Assembly (NCBI RefSeq): GCF_030384885.1 | Contig: NZ_CP128613.1 | Source of the DNA: Escherichia coli | Lineage (GTDB): Bacteria; Pseudomonadota; Gammaproteobacteria; Enterobacterales; Enterobacteriaceae | Reading direction: 5' to 3' (one strand) | Length of the DNA stretch: 64,000 bases | Part shown: positions 17,600 through 29,284 of the stretch, piece by piece | Position numbering within the stretch: position 1 is the stretch's first letter | Layout of the letters: the number at the start of each line of letters is the position of its first letter | The notes under the pieces: generated by a model | Database searches by the model: none | What the model was told of the DNA's origin: nothing | Seen by the model: the letters and a program-made list of their open reading frames with translations, nothing else | Made by a program: the position numbers and the translations under genes

Positions 17600-18631
17600 A
17601 TGATCGCTGAACTGTTTACAAATAATGCGCTTAATCTGGTCATTATTTTCGGTAGCTGCGCAGCATTGATTCTGATGAGCTTTTGGTTTCGCCGCGGAAA
17701 TCGTAAAAGAAAAGGATTTTTATTCCATGCGGTGCAATTTTTAATCTACACCATAATTATCAGTGCTGTTGGTAGCATCATTAATTATGTTATAGAAAAC
17801 TACAAACTCCAATTTATCACTCCAGGCGTTATCGATTTTATCTGTACGTCCCTGATTGCGGTTATTCTGACGATTAAGTTATTTCTGCTGATTAATCAGT
17901 TTGAAAAACAGCAGATTAAAAAAGGTCGCGATATCACCAGTGCGCGGATTATGTCGCGTATCATCAAAATCACCATTATTGTGGTACTTGTTTTGCTTTA
18001 TGGCGAACATTTCGGTATGAGCCTTTCTGGCTTGTTGACCTTTGGTGGTATTGGTGGTCTGGCTGTCGGTATGGCCGGTAAAGATATTTTGAGTAACTTC
18101 TTTTCCGGGATTATGCTCTATTTCGACCGTCCTTTTAGTATTGGCGACTGGATCCGTTCACCGGACAGAAATATCGAAGGTACAGTAGCGGAAATTGGCT
18201 GGCGAATTACCAAAATTACGACCTTTGATAATCGTCCGTTATACGTCCCGAACTCGCTGTTTTCGTCTATCAGCGTAGAAAACCCGGGGCGAATGACCAA
18301 CCGACGTATTACCACGACAATCGGTTTACGTTATGAGGATGCGGCAAAAGTGGGAGCCATTGTCGAAGCCGTACGTGAGATGCTTAAAAATCACCCAGCC
18401 ATCGACCAGCGACAAACCTTACTGGTTTATTTCAACCAGTTTGCTGACTCGTCATTGAATATTATGGTTTATTGCTTTACCAAAACCACAGTATGGGCTG
18501 AATGGCTTGCCGCCCAGCAGGATGTTTATTTGAAGATTATCGATATTGTACAGTCACACGGCGCGGATTTCGCGTTCCCAAGCCAGACGCTGTATATGGA
18601 TAACATTACACCACCAGACCAGGGTCGTTAA
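17600..18631 (+). CDS. ynaI: MscS-family mechanosensitive channel YnaI
   Basis: 343 aa; N-terminal TM helices followed by an MscS-like beta domain. Confidence 0.88.
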
Positions 18632-18676
18632 TTCAGACATCACTGGCGTTACCCACAAGGGTAACGCCAGTTCACA

Positions 18677-20290
18677 TCAATGTTTCACAATATACATAGT
18701 CCGGCTATACGCCACATCTTCCGGGTTATTAATGGGATAACCTTTCAGCCACGGCTTGATTAATCGTCCATTGGTATATTGATAAATTGGTGCAATCGGT
18801 GCTTGCTCCATGAGGATTTTTTCTGCCGCGTTGTAATCGGCATTACGCGCTTTAACGGTATTTTCCGTCGATGCCTGGGCCAAAACTTTGTCGTAGGCCG
18901 GGTTGTTAAAACGTGAAATGTTCCCTGAATGCGTTGACGTTAATAATGTCAGGAAGGTGGAGGGTTCATTATAATCCCCCACCCACGAGGCGCGGATAAC
19001 ATCAAAATTACCTGTATTACGACTATCGATATAGGTTTTCCATTCCTGATTTTGCAGTTTGACATCTACACCAAGGTTCTTTTTCCACATCGATGCCACA
19101 GCAATCGCAATTTTTTGATGGTTTTCTGAAGTATTATACAAAAGCGTCAGCTTCAGCGGTTTTTGCGGACCATAACCGGCTGCGCTCAACAAAGTTTTTG
19201 CCTGCGCATTCAGTTCTTCCTGACTCATTTGTTCAAACGGCGAAGGCTCCGGCGTGAATCCGGCAGTAACATCTGGCGTAAAATGCCACGCTGGTTTTTC
19301 GCCCGTCCCCAACACTTTTTCGGTCATCAGGCGGCGATCTATCGTCATACTTAATGCCAGACGAACGCGCTGATCTGCCGCCGGCCCTTTTTGCGTGTTA
19401 AACGCATAATAATAGGTCCCGAGCTGCGGCGGTGTATAAACCTGCCCCGGAATATCCTTCAACAGCTTCTGATACATATTTTTGGGGAAGGATTCGGTGA
19501 TATCAATATCCCCCGCGAGATAACGCTTAGTGGCTGCGGATTCCTGATTAATTGGCAGGAAGGTCACTTTTTGCAACACCGTTTTGGCGTTATCCCAATA
19601 ATGAGTATTTGGCACCACGACCAGTTTTTCATTGACTACACGCTCTTTAAGAACATAAGCGCCATTGCCGACCAGATTTCCGGGTTTCGTCCACTCTTTC
19701 CCGCTTTCTACGTTAGCTTTTTGCACCGGGAAGAAGGCAAAATTGGCTGTTAAATTCACAAACCACGGCAACGGTTTATCAAGCTGGATTTTCAAAGTAC
19801 GGGCATCAACCGCGGTGACGCCTAGCTGATCAGGCGTAGCTTTACCATCAATAATCGCCTGTGCGTTGTTGATTCCCGCCAGCGCGGCAAACCAGGCAAA
19901 CGGCGACAACGTTTTTGGGTCAACCAGACGTTGCCAGCTGTAGACAAAATCCTGTGCCGTTACCGGTGTGCCATCCGCCCATTTTGCGTTATCGCGCAGG
20001 GTGAAAGTCCAGATACGGTTGTCATTACTTTTCCACTGAGTCGCAACGCCGGGGACAATCTCCCCTTTCTCGTTCTGATTCACCAGTCCTTCAAAAAGAT
20101 CGCGAATGACCTGAATCTCTGGCAGACCCACGGCTTTAGCGGGATCCAGCGACGCAGGCTCATCTTTAATATGGCGCACCAGCTCCTGCTTCTCTGCCAG
20201 TACTGTGCCGCTCGGAACTTCTGCAGCATACGAAAGAGAAATGCTGCTGACCAACAGCGCACAACACGTGACTGAAACAGAGTGCTTCAT
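18677..20290 (-). CDS. mppA: periplasmic murein tripeptide-binding protein MppA
   Basis: 537 aa; signal peptide then an OppA-like family 5 solute-binding protein. Confidence 0.9.
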   Translation of the reverse strand: MKHSVSVTCCALLVSSISLSYAAEVPSGTVLAEKQELVRHIKDEPASLDPAKAVGLPEIQVIRDLFEGLVNQNEKGEIVPGVATQWKSNDNRIWTFTLRDNAKWADGTPVTAQDFVYSWQRLVDPKTLSPFAWFAALAGINNAQAIIDGKATPDQLGVTAVDARTLKIQLDKPLPWFVNLTANFAFFPVQKANVESGKEWTKPGNLVGNGAYVLKERVVNEKLVVVPNTHYWDNAKTVLQKVTFLPINQESAATKRYLAGDIDITESFPKNMYQKLLKDIPGQVYTPPQLGTYYYAFNTQKGPAADQRVRLALSMTIDRRLMTEKVLGTGEKPAWHFTPDVTAGFTPEPSPFEQMSQEELNAQAKTLLSAAGYGPQKPLKLTLLYNTSENHQKIAIAVASMWKKNLGVDVKLQNQEWKTYIDSRNTGNFDVIRASWVGDYNEPSTFLTLLTSTHSGNISRFNNPAYDKVLAQASTENTVKARNADYNAAEKILMEQAPIAPIYQYTNGRLIKPWLKGYPINNPEDVAYSRTMYIVKH

Positions 20291-20472
20291 AAGTTACCCT
20301 CAAACCTGCGTTAATAATCATGCGTAATTATTTGTTTCGCCTTAAAGAAATGCAAACAACTTCCGGCAAAAAAGTGATACAAGATCGATAACATAGCGTT
20401 GAAGAAAAGGATTTGATAATCCGCAAAATTTGCACAACACTGCCTGTAATACTTCCTGAACCAGAGACGATC

Positions 20473-21201
20473 ATGACCGTAACTCGCCCACGCGCCGAAC
20501 GCGGCGCATTTCCGCCCGGTACAGAACATTACGGACGTTCATTATTGGGCGCGCCTTTGATCTGGTTTCCGGCCCCAGCCGCCAGTCACGAAAGTGGTTT
20601 GATTCTGGCTGGCACCCACGGTGATGAAAACTCTTCGGTCGTGACCCTCTCCTGTGCTCTGCGGACATTGACACCGTCTTTGCGCCGCCATCATGTGGTG
20701 CTGTGTGTGAATCCTGACGGCTGCCAGTTAGGGTTACGGGCCAATGCTAATGGCGTGGATTTAAATAGAAACTTTCCGGCAGCAAACTGGAAGGAAGGTG
20801 AAACGGTTTATCGCTGGAACAGCGCCGCTGAAGAACGTGATGTCGTTTTACTGACAGGTGACAAACCTGGCTCCGAACCTGAAACTCAGGCGCTGTGCCA
20901 GCTTATACATCGCATTCAACCTGCCTGGGTGGTCTCATTCCACGATCCACTGGCCTGTATTGAAGACCCCAGACACAGCGAATTAGGTGAATGGCTGGCC
21001 CAGGCGTTTGAATTGCCACTGGTCACCAGCGTCGGTTATGAAACGCCTGGCTCTTTCGGCAGTTGGTGTGCGGATCTCAACCTGCATTGCATCACCGCAG
21101 AGTTTCCGCCCATCTCCTCCGACGAAGCCAGCGAAAAATACCTCTTTGCGATGGCTAACTTGCTGCGCTGGCATCCTAAAGATGCAATGCGCCCGTCGTG
21201 A
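20473..21201 (+). CDS. mpaA: murein peptide amidase A (M14 zinc carboxypeptidase-like)
   Basis: 242 aa from the ATG at 20473 (MTVTRPRAERGAF); HGDE zinc-binding motif. Confidence 0.88.
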   Translation: MTVTRPRAERGAFPPGTEHYGRSLLGAPLIWFPAPAASHESGLILAGTHGDENSSVVTLSCALRTLTPSLRRHHVVLCVNPDGCQLGLRANANGVDLNRNFPAANWKEGETVYRWNSAAEERDVVLLTGDKPGSEPETQALCQLIHRIQPAWVVSFHDPLACIEDPRHSELGEWLAQAFELPLVTSVGYETPGSFGSWCADLNLHCITAEFPPISSDEASEKYLFAMANLLRWHPKDAMRPS

Positions 21202-22141
21202 ATTGAAGCGCCGGTTCCACATCTACCGCCAGCCAGGTCGGTCCGTCAAGATCAGCAAAACTGACCTGCGGCACCAGCGGTAAAGCGGCGTTAATGGCAC
21301 GAGAGGTACACAACATGCAGCCCAGCATCAGACTGAAACCTTGTGCACGTGCTTCAGTCGCCAGCGCCAGCGCTTCCGTCAGGCCACCCGTTTTATCGAG
21401 CTTAATGTTAACCATCTCATAGCGCCCTTTCAGCGCCTTCAGATTGCTACGAGTATGACAACTTTCATCTGCACAAATCGGTAACGGATGAATAAAATTC
21501 TCCAACGCCGCATCGTCCTGCGCAGGAAGCGGTTGTTCAAGCATCGCAACGCCTAAATCCGCCAATAGCTGGCAACGCGCCGCCAACCCTTCTGCACGCC
21601 AGGATTCATTTGCATCAACGATTAGCGTCGCATCGGGTACAGCCGTGCGAATTGCTACCATCCGCTCACTGATAAGATGGTTATCCAGCTTCACTTTCAG
21701 TAATTTCGCGCCTGCCTGCCAGAGTGTTGATGCACTATTGGCCATCTGATCAGGCGTACCGATGACTACCGTCTGGGCAGTGGTGACTGTCTCGGGAAGC
21801 GTTATGCCGATCAAATCAGCCAGCGATTGCTGCTGTTTTCGCGCCGCCAGATCCCACAATGCACAATCCAGCGCATTACGTGCTGCGCCGGCAGGGAGAA
21901 TTTTTTGCAACTCCTCCCGTGTAAGCCCTTTCTCTAATTGCGGCACGACGCTCATAATTTGCGCCATTACCGAGGCATCACTTTCTCCATAACGCGGATA
22001 CGGCGTGCATTCACCGGTGCCTTTAATACCTTCTTCTTCCAGTTCAACCACCACCACGCGCGCTTCACTACGACTTCCCCGAGCAATCACAAACGGGGTA
22101 TGTAAGGGCCAGGCTTCCTCAAATACCTTAACGGTTCTCAT
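21176..22141 (-). CDS. ycjG: L-Ala-D/L-Glu epimerase (enolase superfamily)
   Basis: 321 aa from the ATG at 22141 (MRTVKVFEEAWPLHTPF); 3' end overlaps the mpaA 3' end by 26 bp. Confidence 0.88.
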   Translation of the reverse strand: MRTVKVFEEAWPLHTPFVIARGSRSEARVVVVELEEEGIKGTGECTPYPRYGESDASVMAQIMSVVPQLEKGLTREELQKILPAGAARNALDCALWDLAARKQQQSLADLIGITLPETVTTAQTVVIGTPDQMANSASTLWQAGAKLLKVKLDNHLISERMVAIRTAVPDATLIVDANESWRAEGLAARCQLLADLGVAMLEQPLPAQDDAALENFIHPLPICADESCHTRSNLKALKGRYEMVNIKLDKTGGLTEALALATEARAQGFSLMLGCMLCTSRAINAALPLVPQVSFADLDGPTWLAVDVEPALQFTTGALHL

Positions 22142-22259
22142 CTTTACTCCTTGTTGTCGCGGTGGTCTGCGGATTAAGCGCAAATAGCGTTTGCTGTGTT
22201 ATTGACAGTTAGCATAAACTAGGTGTGACGTTAACTATATGTAAACAGGAAAGATAATC

Positions 22260-22763
22260 ATGTCACAAACCGTTCATTTCCAGGGCAACCCGGTTACAGT
22301 CGCCAATTCCATCCCGCAGGCGGGTAGCAAAGCGCAGACTTTTACTCTCGTGGCAAAAGATCTGTCTGACGTCACCCTCGGTCAGTTTGCGGGTAAACGC
22401 AAAGTGCTGAACATTTTCCCGAGTATTGATACCGGTGTTTGCGCCGCATCAGTACGTAAGTTTAACCAACTGGCAACCGAGATCGACAACACCGTTGTGC
22501 TGTGTATCTCTGCCGATCTGCCGTTCGCCCAGTCTCGTTTCTGCGGCGCAGAAGGTCTGAACAACGTTATCACCCTCTCCACTTTCCGTAACGCTGAATT
22601 CCTGCAAGCCTACGGTGTGGCAATTGCTGATGGCCCACTGAAAGGTCTGGCAGCGCGTGCCGTTGTGGTTATCGATGAAAATGACAATGTGATTTTCAGC
22701 CAGCTGGTTGATGAAATCACCACCGAGCCGGATTACGAAGCAGCTCTGGCTGTACTGCGCTAA
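22260..22763 (+). CDS. tpx: thiol peroxidase Tpx
   Basis: 167 aa; peroxidatic Cys motif (TGVCA) and atypical 2-Cys Prx fold. Confidence 0.93.
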
Positions 22764-22772
22764 ACAACTGTG

Positions 22773-22810
22773 CCGTTCACTGAATCACCACCGGTGAACG
22801 GCAGTTTTTG
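22773..22810 (+). terminator. Rho-independent terminator downstream of tpx
   Basis: Hairpin ccgttcac...gtgaacgg followed by cagtttttg. Confidence 0.65.
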
Positions 22811-22916
22811 ATCTACCAGTCCCATTATTTTCCAGAGTTCCTGCCACTATTCCCCCTAACCGTTGTGCATTAAGATTGCTCTTTGCCATTATTGGCCCAG
22901 CGGAGTGATGACTATT

Positions 22917-24959
22917 ATGGATGATAAACAAATTACGGTCTGGCTTAAACACAATTGCTGTTCAACGGACATTCCTGCCATTGCCGAGGCACTAACGAAC
23001 CATGCAGAATGGCTTTTAGAGCTAGCGCCAGATCCTATTGAACAAGGTTGTTCATGTTTACCGCCGACAGCTGCAGCCGGTATTTTTCTTGGCGCAGCGG
23101 CGATGGTTCACTGCGGCGAGGCTAGTGGTGCAGAAACCTGGCTCGAAGCAGCCATTACTGATTACCATTTCTTTAATCCAAATGGATATAGTTCATGGAG
23201 AGGCAGTACGCCTGTTTTTACAGCATTATCGCGTTACCCGGCATTAAGAATGGTGTTATTTAACGCCGCTTGCGCAATGGAAGACTGGAATAAAGCATCC
23301 GCTGTTCTTGAATCGCTTTTCCATGCCAGCGATGTAACGGAAGATAACCCTGTCGCCCCCAATTTTACCCCTTATGCGCTGAAAGCGTTTATCGCGGATT
23401 ACCACCCGTTAGGGCCTGCTTATTATGATGAAACCTGGTTGCTGGCAAAACAAGCGTGGTTAATTAATGCGGGCGTTCTGGATGAGCGAACCTGTAATAC
23501 CTGGAAGCAATATACCCGCCATTTGCGCCATTTGATCCATAATGCACAGTTTTCCGATGCGATCTCTTTTGTACGCAGTAAAAAAGAACCATTAAATCAT
23601 ATCCATACCTACTCAGACTTTTATCTCTATGCGATTGGTTTATTTTCTTCTACTGATCAGCTAAGTGAAGCGCTAACCTGGGTAAAACAATTAATCCGCA
23701 ACAATGATGGTCATTTCCATGATCTTTTCGTTTCAACTGGCGCAAAGCGCCGAATAAAGCCTGAACTTAGTACCTTGCTGAATAATCTCTTGTACAGCGC
23801 AGAGTTTCAGGCGTTGCAGGATAAATATCTCACCGTCGGACATGATGTTGTGCATTCTGGTCCCTTCATGTCACTTTATGAAAAGGTTCTTGGCGGTAAG
23901 TCCCGAAAGCGCTGCGCGATTAGTCGAAAATTAATCTCACCCGGCGAAGCGGTTTATGAATATCGTCAGCTGGATAGTGTGGAATATATTGCAGCGAAAG
24001 CGGCCTTTCAGACATCTGAGCTAAATAATATCGCCCACCGGCATCATAATGATAGTTATCAGTGGCATGAATTTGCCGTCCAATGGCCTCGTCGGGGTTC
24101 ACTTTCTCACCCAGATATTGCCCGTTATTTGTTTGAGCGCCAGGAAGGAAAATGCTTTGATGCCGCAGAGTTTATACAACTGATTGCGGAACCGTTTGTC
24201 TTTCCGATGCGTTTCATATGGGTTGCCGGGTTGTCCTTTGAATTACATCAGTATCCGGATGCCTATTTCGTAAATGACAATATGGCGGGTGAATTTGTTA
24301 ATCTCTGCTGGATGGCTATGAAATGCGGACATGCTGGCGACATTTTCAAACAACTGGCCCACGAGCCGCATGACGTTGCTGACCCTATTTACGCCATGCT
24401 CGCCACGTTTGACCGCGCTGATTGCCGTAGCGCCGCCGCCGCGCACTTTGGACAACCGGAACTACCGGAAATAATGGCACTGGCTTTCAGTTCGAGGTTA
24501 TCGCTCGACAGCGTCCTTACCATCGCTGAGTTTGGTAAAAATCAGCCGCGATTTTCACATGCGCTAGCAACGGCCCTCCTGCGTTACAACCTGCACATCT
24601 ACTCAAACTATATGCCGCAGGTTAACTGGTACCTTCAGGGGCTGGAACACTATGCTTTGGCAAAAGGCGGTCAACTTTTAAATTTCTTTGTGCATATTCC
24701 AGAACAAATTCCCGTTCTGGCGACCATGCTGGAACATGGCGTATTAGTGCGTGGGATCGGTGAAGGTGCCTATGATGGTTATGATAATTCAGCAAATTCA
24801 TTTCATCATGCCGCCGTGATGCACTGCCTCACGCACGCGCCGGAAAAAGTCCGCTACTGGATGGAAACACCCTGGATTCAGAACTATTTAGTGAATGCGC
24901 CGCTGCGTCAAACGGCGCGCCATGTGGAAGCCTGGCATAAAAAGTTTGGCATCAAATGA
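22917..24959 (+). CDS. hypothetical protein, about 680 aa, no family recognised; probably cytoplasmic, Cys/His-rich N-terminus
   Basis: Single long ORF (table entry 22863..24959, which starts at a TTG); the ATG at 22917 has ggag 11 nt upstream. No signal peptide or TM segment by eye. Sits between convergent tpx and tyrR where recalled K-12 order has no gene. Confidence 0.6.
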   Translation: MDDKQITVWLKHNCCSTDIPAIAEALTNHAEWLLELAPDPIEQGCSCLPPTAAAGIFLGAAAMVHCGEASGAETWLEAAITDYHFFNPNGYSSWRGSTPVFTALSRYPALRMVLFNAACAMEDWNKASAVLESLFHASDVTEDNPVAPNFTPYALKAFIADYHPLGPAYYDETWLLAKQAWLINAGVLDERTCNTWKQYTRHLRHLIHNAQFSDAISFVRSKKEPLNHIHTYSDFYLYAIGLFSSTDQLSEALTWVKQLIRNNDGHFHDLFVSTGAKRRIKPELSTLLNNLLYSAEFQALQDKYLTVGHDVVHSGPFMSLYEKVLGGKSRKRCAISRKLISPGEAVYEYRQLDSVEYIAAKAAFQTSELNNIAHRHHNDSYQWHEFAVQWPRRGSLSHPDIARYLFERQEGKCFDAAEFIQLIAEPFVFPMRFIWVAGLSFELHQYPDAYFVNDNMAGEFVNLCWMAMKCGHAGDIFKQLAHEPHDVADPIYAMLATFDRADCRSAAAAHFGQPELPEIMALAFSSRLSLDSVLTIAEFGKNQPRFSHALATALLRYNLHIYSNYMPQVNWYLQGLEHYALAKGGQLLNFFVHIPEQIPVLATMLEHGVLVRGIGEGAYDGYDNSANSFHHAAVMHCLTHAPEKVRYWMETPWIQNYLVNAPLRQTARHVEAWHKKFGIK

Positions 24960-29141: not shown

Positions 29142-29284
29142 TGCTGTCCTGTGGACCAGAAAAAATCATTCGTAAGGATATGAATGTGGGGGCCATGCCC
29201 TTGATTATCAACTGCCCGTGTTGTCATCTTGAGGGGAACTCCATAAGATGTGCAGCATTCACGTTCGGACGGAGTTCCTGACCT

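Follow-up and report, generated by a model that had tools for sequence, protein, structure and literature searches.

In the window, the 64,000-nt stretch of Escherichia coli DNA (contig NZ_CP128613.1) that was analysed, the genes mpaA and ycjG lie on opposite strands and have 26 bp in common at their stop-proximal ends. This tail-to-tail overlap of coding sequences (CDSs) is real but unremarkable, and it was probably brought about by the movement of a stop codon and not by selection for antisense control. The overlap as such is already known from the K-12 reference annotation and from a catalogue of excludons published in 2025.

Results

The mpaA gene (20473..21201, + strand) encodes a murein tripeptide amidase of 242 aa and ycjG (21176..22141, − strand) an L-Ala-D/L-Glu epimerase of 321 aa, both assignments being based on the ORF list, the RefSeq annotation, NCBIfam and the PDB. 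The overlap at 21176..21201 is in phase 123:132, i.e. codon position 2 of mpaA stands opposite position 3 of ycjG. It is bounded on one side by the ycjG stop codon TAG (21176..21178, − strand, the complement of CTA) and on the other by the mpaA stop codon TGA (21199..21201, + strand), which is TAA in most Citrobacter and Salmonella. The ORF list and the reading of the sequence agree on the C-terminal ends, ...RWHPKDAMRPS* for MpaA and ...FTTGALHL* for YcjG, and both stops are the first in-frame stops of their genes. In NZ_CP027579.1, RefSeq annotates mpaA and ycjG at the window's own coordinates, and the RefSeq annotation of K-12 MG1655 contains the same 26-bp overlap (ycjG 1388930..1389895, mpaA 1389870..1390598). 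The 26-bp convergent 3' overlap described in an earlier note on this DNA is thus confirmed by the ORF list, the sequence and RefSeq in both genomes, and its statement that the genes are on opposite strands without intergenic space agrees with the ORF list and the sequence. The note had named other true stop positions as the circumstance that would remove the overlap; this does not apply, as both stops are the first in frame. With opposite strands and stop-proximal ends that have 26 bp in common, the two genes form a convergent overlapping CDS pair.

Of 5426 complete E. coli genomes, 5414 contain the junction, as judged by a 181-bp probe at an identity of at least 95%; mpaA and ycjG were both annotated under the probe in every sampled match. 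The window's own junction allele (21100-21280) is unusual: an identity of at least 99% is reached in 3 of the 5414 genomes, the others lying at 95–99%. The annotation of E. coli EFF60 (NZ_CP086678.1, 4785367-4786094) gives mpaA as a frameshifted pseudogene.

That mpaA and ycjG are genuine genes with full-length products can be seen from the NCBIfam equivalogs, the structures 5HXD and 1JPD, and orthologues in 80 species. Against the equivalog NF007897, MpaA reaches 478.7 bits (cut-off 157); the match comprises residues 1-236 on a profile of 237 positions, and the last 6 residues are located outside the profile. PDB entry 5HXD is near-identical to MpaA over residues 1-237 and its deposited chain ends at residue 237, a limit that may be due to the design of the construct; the homology to the Vibrio MpaA (4AXV) ends at residue 235 of the window's protein. 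For YcjG, 676.3 bits were obtained against the equivalog NF011708 (cut-off 343) with 321/321 covered, and PDB entry 1JPD is near-identical over 1-321. The end of the 5HXD chain and the 237 positions of the family profile could be taken to mean that one annotated stop is not the real end of its protein, so that no true overlap exists. We give this reading almost no credence. Both ends are fixed by the first in-frame stop, for which there are no alternative positions as there are for a start codon, and even an MpaA of 237 aa would still end inside ycjG, since codon 237 ends at 21183, past the ycjG stop at 21176. Further, the crystal chain of 1JPD as well as the profile extend to L321, the last residue of YcjG, and K-12 and all sampled E. 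coli genomes are annotated in the same way. With unambiguous stops, and with structures and profiles in agreement, an annotation artefact was rejected.

Which of the two reading frames is under constraint was addressed by the per-site variation of 23 canonical sequences of the 26-bp class from Escherichia, Citrobacter and Salmonella. The variable sites of the overlap in these 23 sequences, 21179, 21185, 21188, 21191, 21194 and 21200, are third positions of ycjG and second positions of mpaA, and the third positions of mpaA are almost invariant there. Directly upstream of the overlap the variation occurs at mpaA third positions, as usual. The protein ends show the same picture. In 22 Escherichia, Citrobacter and Salmonella loci the last 8 aa of MpaA are 57% identical to those of the window, compared to 93.6% for the whole protein, and 16 distinct tails occur; the last 8 residues of YcjG are 86% identical, compared to 88.6% for the whole protein. 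Judged from these comparisons, the constrained reading frame of the overlap is the ycjG C-terminus (..FTTGxLHL). The substitution pattern, the tail identities and the limits of profiles and structures together indicate that the overlap belongs to ycjG and that the MpaA tail is a passenger. Residues 236-242 of MpaA (KDAMRPS, 21178..21198, + strand) can be described as a frameshifted, unconstrained C-terminal run-on, and this tail is probably functionally neutral. At position 21189 one base sets a residue in both proteins: G, as in the window, gives M239 in MpaA and A318 in YcjG, and T, as in K-12, gives I239 and E318. The G of the window is unique among the 23 sequences compared.

To follow the overlap through the Enterobacteriaceae, the best 80 of 215 loci (one genome per species, all from this family) were compared, and each gene was scanned from its aligned start to its first in-frame stop. 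The two genes are convergent in all of these loci. An overlap of 10 bp occurs in 44 of them, among others in Enterobacter, Klebsiella, Raoultella, Kluyvera, Leclercia, Lelliottia and Kosakonia, and one of 26 bp in 27, from Escherichia, Citrobacter and Salmonella. Overlaps of 4 bp (three loci), 33 bp (one) and 47 bp (one) are rarer, and in five loci the genes are separated by inserts. In C. koseri NCTC10786 ycjG is a pseudogene with a premature stop.

When representative junctions are aligned, exactly one gap column separates the 26-bp class from the 10-bp and 4-bp classes, and this column lies in the ycjG stop codon. The 26-bp class reads CCT-AAAGATG, the 10-bp class CCTCAGAGATG and the 4-bp class CCTTAAAGGTG; on the ycjG strand, the column distinguishes TAGG (26-bp class) from TGAGG (10-bp and 4-bp classes). 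In the 10-bp state, which is that of most genera, MpaA has 237–239 aa and CCT CAG AGA TGA is read against TCA. One base less in the ycjG stop, with TAG kept in place, results in a frameshifted MpaA tail and a change in length from 237 to 242 aa. Because the state with the base is spread over many genera, we infer that the 26-bp state is due to a 1-nt deletion, which arose in the lineage of Escherichia, Salmonella and Citrobacter; this rests on parsimony and the known phylogeny and not on a computed tree, the direction of the indel leaning on the phylogeny of the Enterobacteriaceae. An ancestral overlap of 10 bp would thus have lost one base inside the ycjG stop (TGAGG to TAGG). The ycjG stop would have been kept at the same place, with the last codons of mpaA being frameshifted and its TGA falling out of frame. 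Translation of mpaA would then run to the next stop, giving a protein of 242 aa and an overlap of 26 bp.

A further change of this kind is found in the C. youngae group, where a CTA to CTT substitution removes the ycjG stop and at once creates a TGA for mpaA. As a result MpaA has 235 aa and YcjG 328 aa, and the overlap again amounts to 26 bp but is non-homologous, lying 21 bp upstream. The loss of the ycjG stop alone, in C. youngae ATCC 29220, leads to the 47-bp overlap. The substitution in the C. youngae group shows that stops at this junction move freely.

In four genomes (L040, L047, L050 and L052) an insert of 284–331 bp is located between the two stops, at 3730-4013 in L040 and at equivalent places in the other three. 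The inserts carry a small ORF that is co-directional with ycjG and has a hydrophobic tail. In L040 it comprises 39 aa (MVDWEEEGVSTQEVLTKRMIDTVGLVILLAVVMAVLCFV), and this ORF gave no match in Pfam or NCBIfam. A perfect bidirectional hairpin terminator consisting of A-tract, hairpin and U-tract (AAAAAAACCCGCC...GGCGGGCTTTTTTTT) is present in the inserts of L040, L047 and L050, and at the same position the insert of L052 has a different palindrome. In L043 an 88-bp REP-like palindromic insert separates mpaA and ycjG.

The neighbourhood of the pair differs between strains. In the window, mppA adjoins mpaA directly across a divergent intergenic region (20291-20472). A segment of about 2.4 kb, ymjC-ymjD-ycjY-pgrR, occupies the mppA-mpaA site in K-12 and, altogether, in about 97% of complete E. 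coli genomes. The uninterrupted form was found in 173 of 5418 E. coli genomes. A direct repeat of about 30 bp borders the segment on either side in K-12 and is present as a single copy in the window (20348-20377). In 76 of 82 loci mppA was found in the 3-kb flank and ycjY/pgrR were not detected there; where coordinates were inspected among these 76, mppA lies about 180 bp upstream of mpaA. Of the two forms, the mppA-mpaA arrangement of the window appears to be the ancestral one, and that of K-12 an insertion specific to E. coli. The strain of the window is also without PgrR, in K-12 a repressor of ycjG and mpaA (PMC5934670). A third local arrangement is seen in E. coli EFF60, with an SDR family oxidoreductase upstream of mpaA.

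Between tpx and tyrR the window contains a hypothetical CDS of 680 aa (22917-24959, + strand) that is absent from K-12. It is confined to 32 of the 5426 complete E. coli genomes, in all of which it is chromosomal; part of it has a slightly lower GC content (0.43), and searches of Pfam, NCBIfam and PADLOC gave no match. Over positions 1-23539 the window is base-for-base identical to strain 2013C-4282 (NZ_CP027579.1); from 23540 on scattered SNPs occur relative to this genome, as well as an indel near 29166. The divergence past 23539 means either that the window stems from another genome closely related to this one, or that a recombination boundary lies within the 680-aa CDS.

A scan for intrinsic terminators by consensus over 18500-23000 revealed no terminator-like hairpin downstream of either stop. 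Within the partner genes no terminator-like site was found on the + strand between 21202 and 22141 or on the − strand between 20473 and 21175, and hence no bidirectional intrinsic terminator. The RNA folds of four junction segments, on both strands, were no better than those of shuffled sequences (z −0.2 to −1.1). As there is neither intergenic space nor a hairpin terminator, each transcript must enter the partner gene.

For one direction published K-12 data are available. In supplementary file 2 of Adams et al. (2021, PMC7815308), a Rho termination region of the class 'antisense mpaA' is entered for position 1390286 on the + strand. On addition of bicyclomycin the downstream reads rose from 14 to 68, with a Rho score of 3.94 and p = 7.2e-5. 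The position is approximate, being derived from 800-nt windows, and the read counts at the locus are low with 47 reads per 800 nt (PMC7815308). In K-12 ycjG is on the + strand and its stop is at 1389895, so that ycjG-strand RNA extends about 390 nt (391) into antisense mpaA before Rho acts. Position 1390286 of K-12 maps to about 20785 in the window. There, a C-rich, G-poor, rut-like tract is located on the − strand at 20682..20863, +313 to +494 past the ycjG stop, with a C/G ratio of 1.4–1.8; it is the only such tract in the RNA past the ycjG stop and brackets the mapped position. On the + strand a C-rich, G-poor tract at 21306..21721, +105 to +520 past the mpaA stop and antisense to ycjG (C/G 1.4–1.9), is predicted as a zone of Rho loading and termination. 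The composition expected of Rho terminators, an untranslated, C-rich and G-poor RNA, is thus found on both strands. The Term-seq tables of Adams et al. (PMC7815308) contain no 3' end or Rho region that names ycjG, nor do mpaA, ycjG or tpx occur in the SMRT-Cappable-seq supplements.

In the absence of hairpin terminators each RNA polymerase would run into the antisense strand of the partner gene, and the antisense RNA, being untranslated and C-rich, would be ended there by Rho. By its composition, mpaA-strand RNA is likely to be terminated by Rho inside antisense ycjG. The situation is the same as that of the Rho-terminated read-through antisense transcripts of Adams et al. (2021, PMC7815308), with a bicyclomycin-sensitive region antisense to mpaA, past ycjG. 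This region is one of many of the 'antisense' class in their table, and the window has a tract with C in excess of G at the matching place; the published data differ in that they cover one direction, come from a K-12 strain and give an approximate position. The pair also shares with bidirectional intrinsic terminators and collision-assisted termination (Wang et al., 2022 preprint, 10.1101/2022.10.23.513370) that both convergent transcripts end in one short stretch, but the junction of the window is without a stem-loop.

Read-in transcription is therefore real in K-12, and in the window the geometry requires it. The expectation of the earlier note that transcription of each gene reads into the other holds, given the geometry and the lack of hairpins, and the Rho region as well as the transcript overlap, both reported for K-12, agree with it. 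Its remark that the arrangement leaves no room for terminators is correct as far as intergenic space and intrinsic terminators are concerned, but not for Rho-dependent termination, which works inside the antisense of the partner.

At the other end of mpaA, a K-12 Term-seq 3' end is located 39 nt inside the gene (1390559, − strand; PMC7815308, supplementary files 1 and 3), corresponding to about 20512 on the + strand of the window. The hairpin GCGCCGAACGCGGCGC followed by AUUUCC is present in the window at this place, too, and may be a site of premature termination or attenuation at the start of mpaA.

Discussion

Convergent CDS overlaps are a regular feature of E. coli, with 58 (PMC2174442) or 75 (PMC4161906) cases counted. 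They are attributed to the mutation of stop codons in both studies, and phase 123:132 is the commonest one for convergent overlaps of at least 5 nt (PMC2174442). The pair mpaA/ycjG corresponds to the stop-codon-mutation model (Lillo & Krakauer 2007, PMC2174442; Huvet & Stumpf 2014, PMC4161906) in its strands, its 3'-3' overlap and its phase. The origin is also the same, namely a stop that is lost or shifted, followed by run-on to the next in-frame stop; there is no essential difference, the event here being a 1-nt indel inside the stop of the partner. Across antisense ycjG the mpaA frame contains stops at 15 of 321 codons, and at this density a run-on of a few codons, five in this case, is expected by chance. 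Eight convergent pairs are annotated in the first 50 kb of NZ_CP027579.1 (whose coordinates are offset from those of the window beyond about 29 kb); only mpaA/ycjG overlaps, the others being separated by gaps of 20–128 bp. The overlap is ordinary and no more than chance would give.

Regulatory readings of the junction start from the ExcludonFinder catalogue of Sanmartin et al. (NAR 2025, PMC12288877). Its 165 convergent excludons include ycjG-mpaA, its 16 divergent ones include tpx-ycjG, and one of the three noncontiguous operons that it gives for E. coli (Table 1) is mpaA-ycjG-tpx. A call follows a boundary rule of 50% of gene coverage and must recur in at least 50% of the 58 RNA-seq samples; according to the authors, convergent pairs could not feasibly be validated by p19 dsRNA, and higher synteny and less single-cell co-expression are characteristic of excludon pairs taken as a class. 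That the spacerless junction of the mppA-mpaA-ycjG-tpx cluster is a selected device for antisense coupling, as excludon or as noncontiguous operon, appears improbable to us. A functional excludon would imply that the junction is kept since transcription of one gene represses the other; this we regard as unlikely, and equally doubtful is the proposed route, in which polymerase collision or RNase III cleavage of an mRNA duplex tunes the MpaA:YcjG ratio. The convergent, spacerless arrangement in about 75 of the 80 Enterobacteriaceae loci (best 80 of 215) would fit such a function, as would the listing among the 165 pairs in at least 50% of the 58 samples, the class-wide synteny and co-expression figures (both PMC12288877), and the approximately 390 nt of ycjG-strand RNA antisense to mpaA (PMC7815308). 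For overlapping CDSs, however, expression of both genes almost suffices for such a call, as the transcript overlap follows trivially from the overlap of the CDSs, so that the listing adds little. It rests on transcript coverage, and PMC12288877 gives no pair-specific test. Convergent excludons and mpaA/ycjG have in common that neighbouring transcripts on opposite strands overlap, but excludons are defined by one gene suppressing the other, whereas mpaA/ycjG is listed on account of its transcript overlap and its genes are co-regulated in K-12, where ycjG and the ycjY-ymjDC-mpaA unit are both in the regulon of a single repressor, PgrR (PMC5934670). Against selection for the junction also speak the drift in length and sequence of the overlap (4, 10, 26, 33 and 47 bp), the five lineages with a terminator-bearing or REP-like insert, and the low read counts at the locus. 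MpaA and YcjG reportedly act consecutively in one pathway, and for consecutive enzymes mutual exclusion would be counterproductive. The antisense interference suggested in the earlier note is thus permitted by the geometry only and looks unlikely as a means of regulation. Sense/antisense pairing or polymerase collision is probably a by-product, and a weak one because both genes are expressed at low levels.

Even less likely, in our view, is a noncontiguous operon in which transcripts from mpaA would continue through all of antisense ycjG and reach tpx; the two outer genes would then be co-transcribed, with ycjG silenced meanwhile. Apart from its place among the three such operons of E. coli in PMC12288877, this reading could draw on the lack of Term-seq 3' ends on the mpaA strand from the stop of mpaA as far as the tpx end (PMC7815308), and on the mppA-mpaA-ycjG-tpx order, which is conserved in 76 of 82 loci. 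As mpaA is weakly expressed, however, a lack of mapped ends is uninformative, and the antisense-ycjG RNA of about 940 nt is C-rich and G-poor from +105 to +520, a composition on which Rho acts. Nor is a thiol peroxidase, to our knowledge, functionally connected with the recycling of murein peptides. In the accessible portion of PMC12288877, moreover, the class appears to follow from convergent plus divergent coverage overlap, and no long-read or pair-specific support is described there. If a coupling of either kind were true, read-through would set the ratio of two consecutive enzymes or link mpaA to tpx; the length of the overlap would then be free to drift, and only the absence of a terminator would matter.

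Our preferred reading remains the movement of a stop codon. An 'excludon' listing comes close to being automatic for overlapping CDSs and should not be read as regulation. The junction of mpaA and ycjG provides a worked example of how one base lost in one stop regenerates that stop and frameshifts the tail of the partner. As the relatives in Citrobacter and position 21189 of the window illustrate, one substitution can swap which of the two genes is extended, and one SNP changes both proteins.
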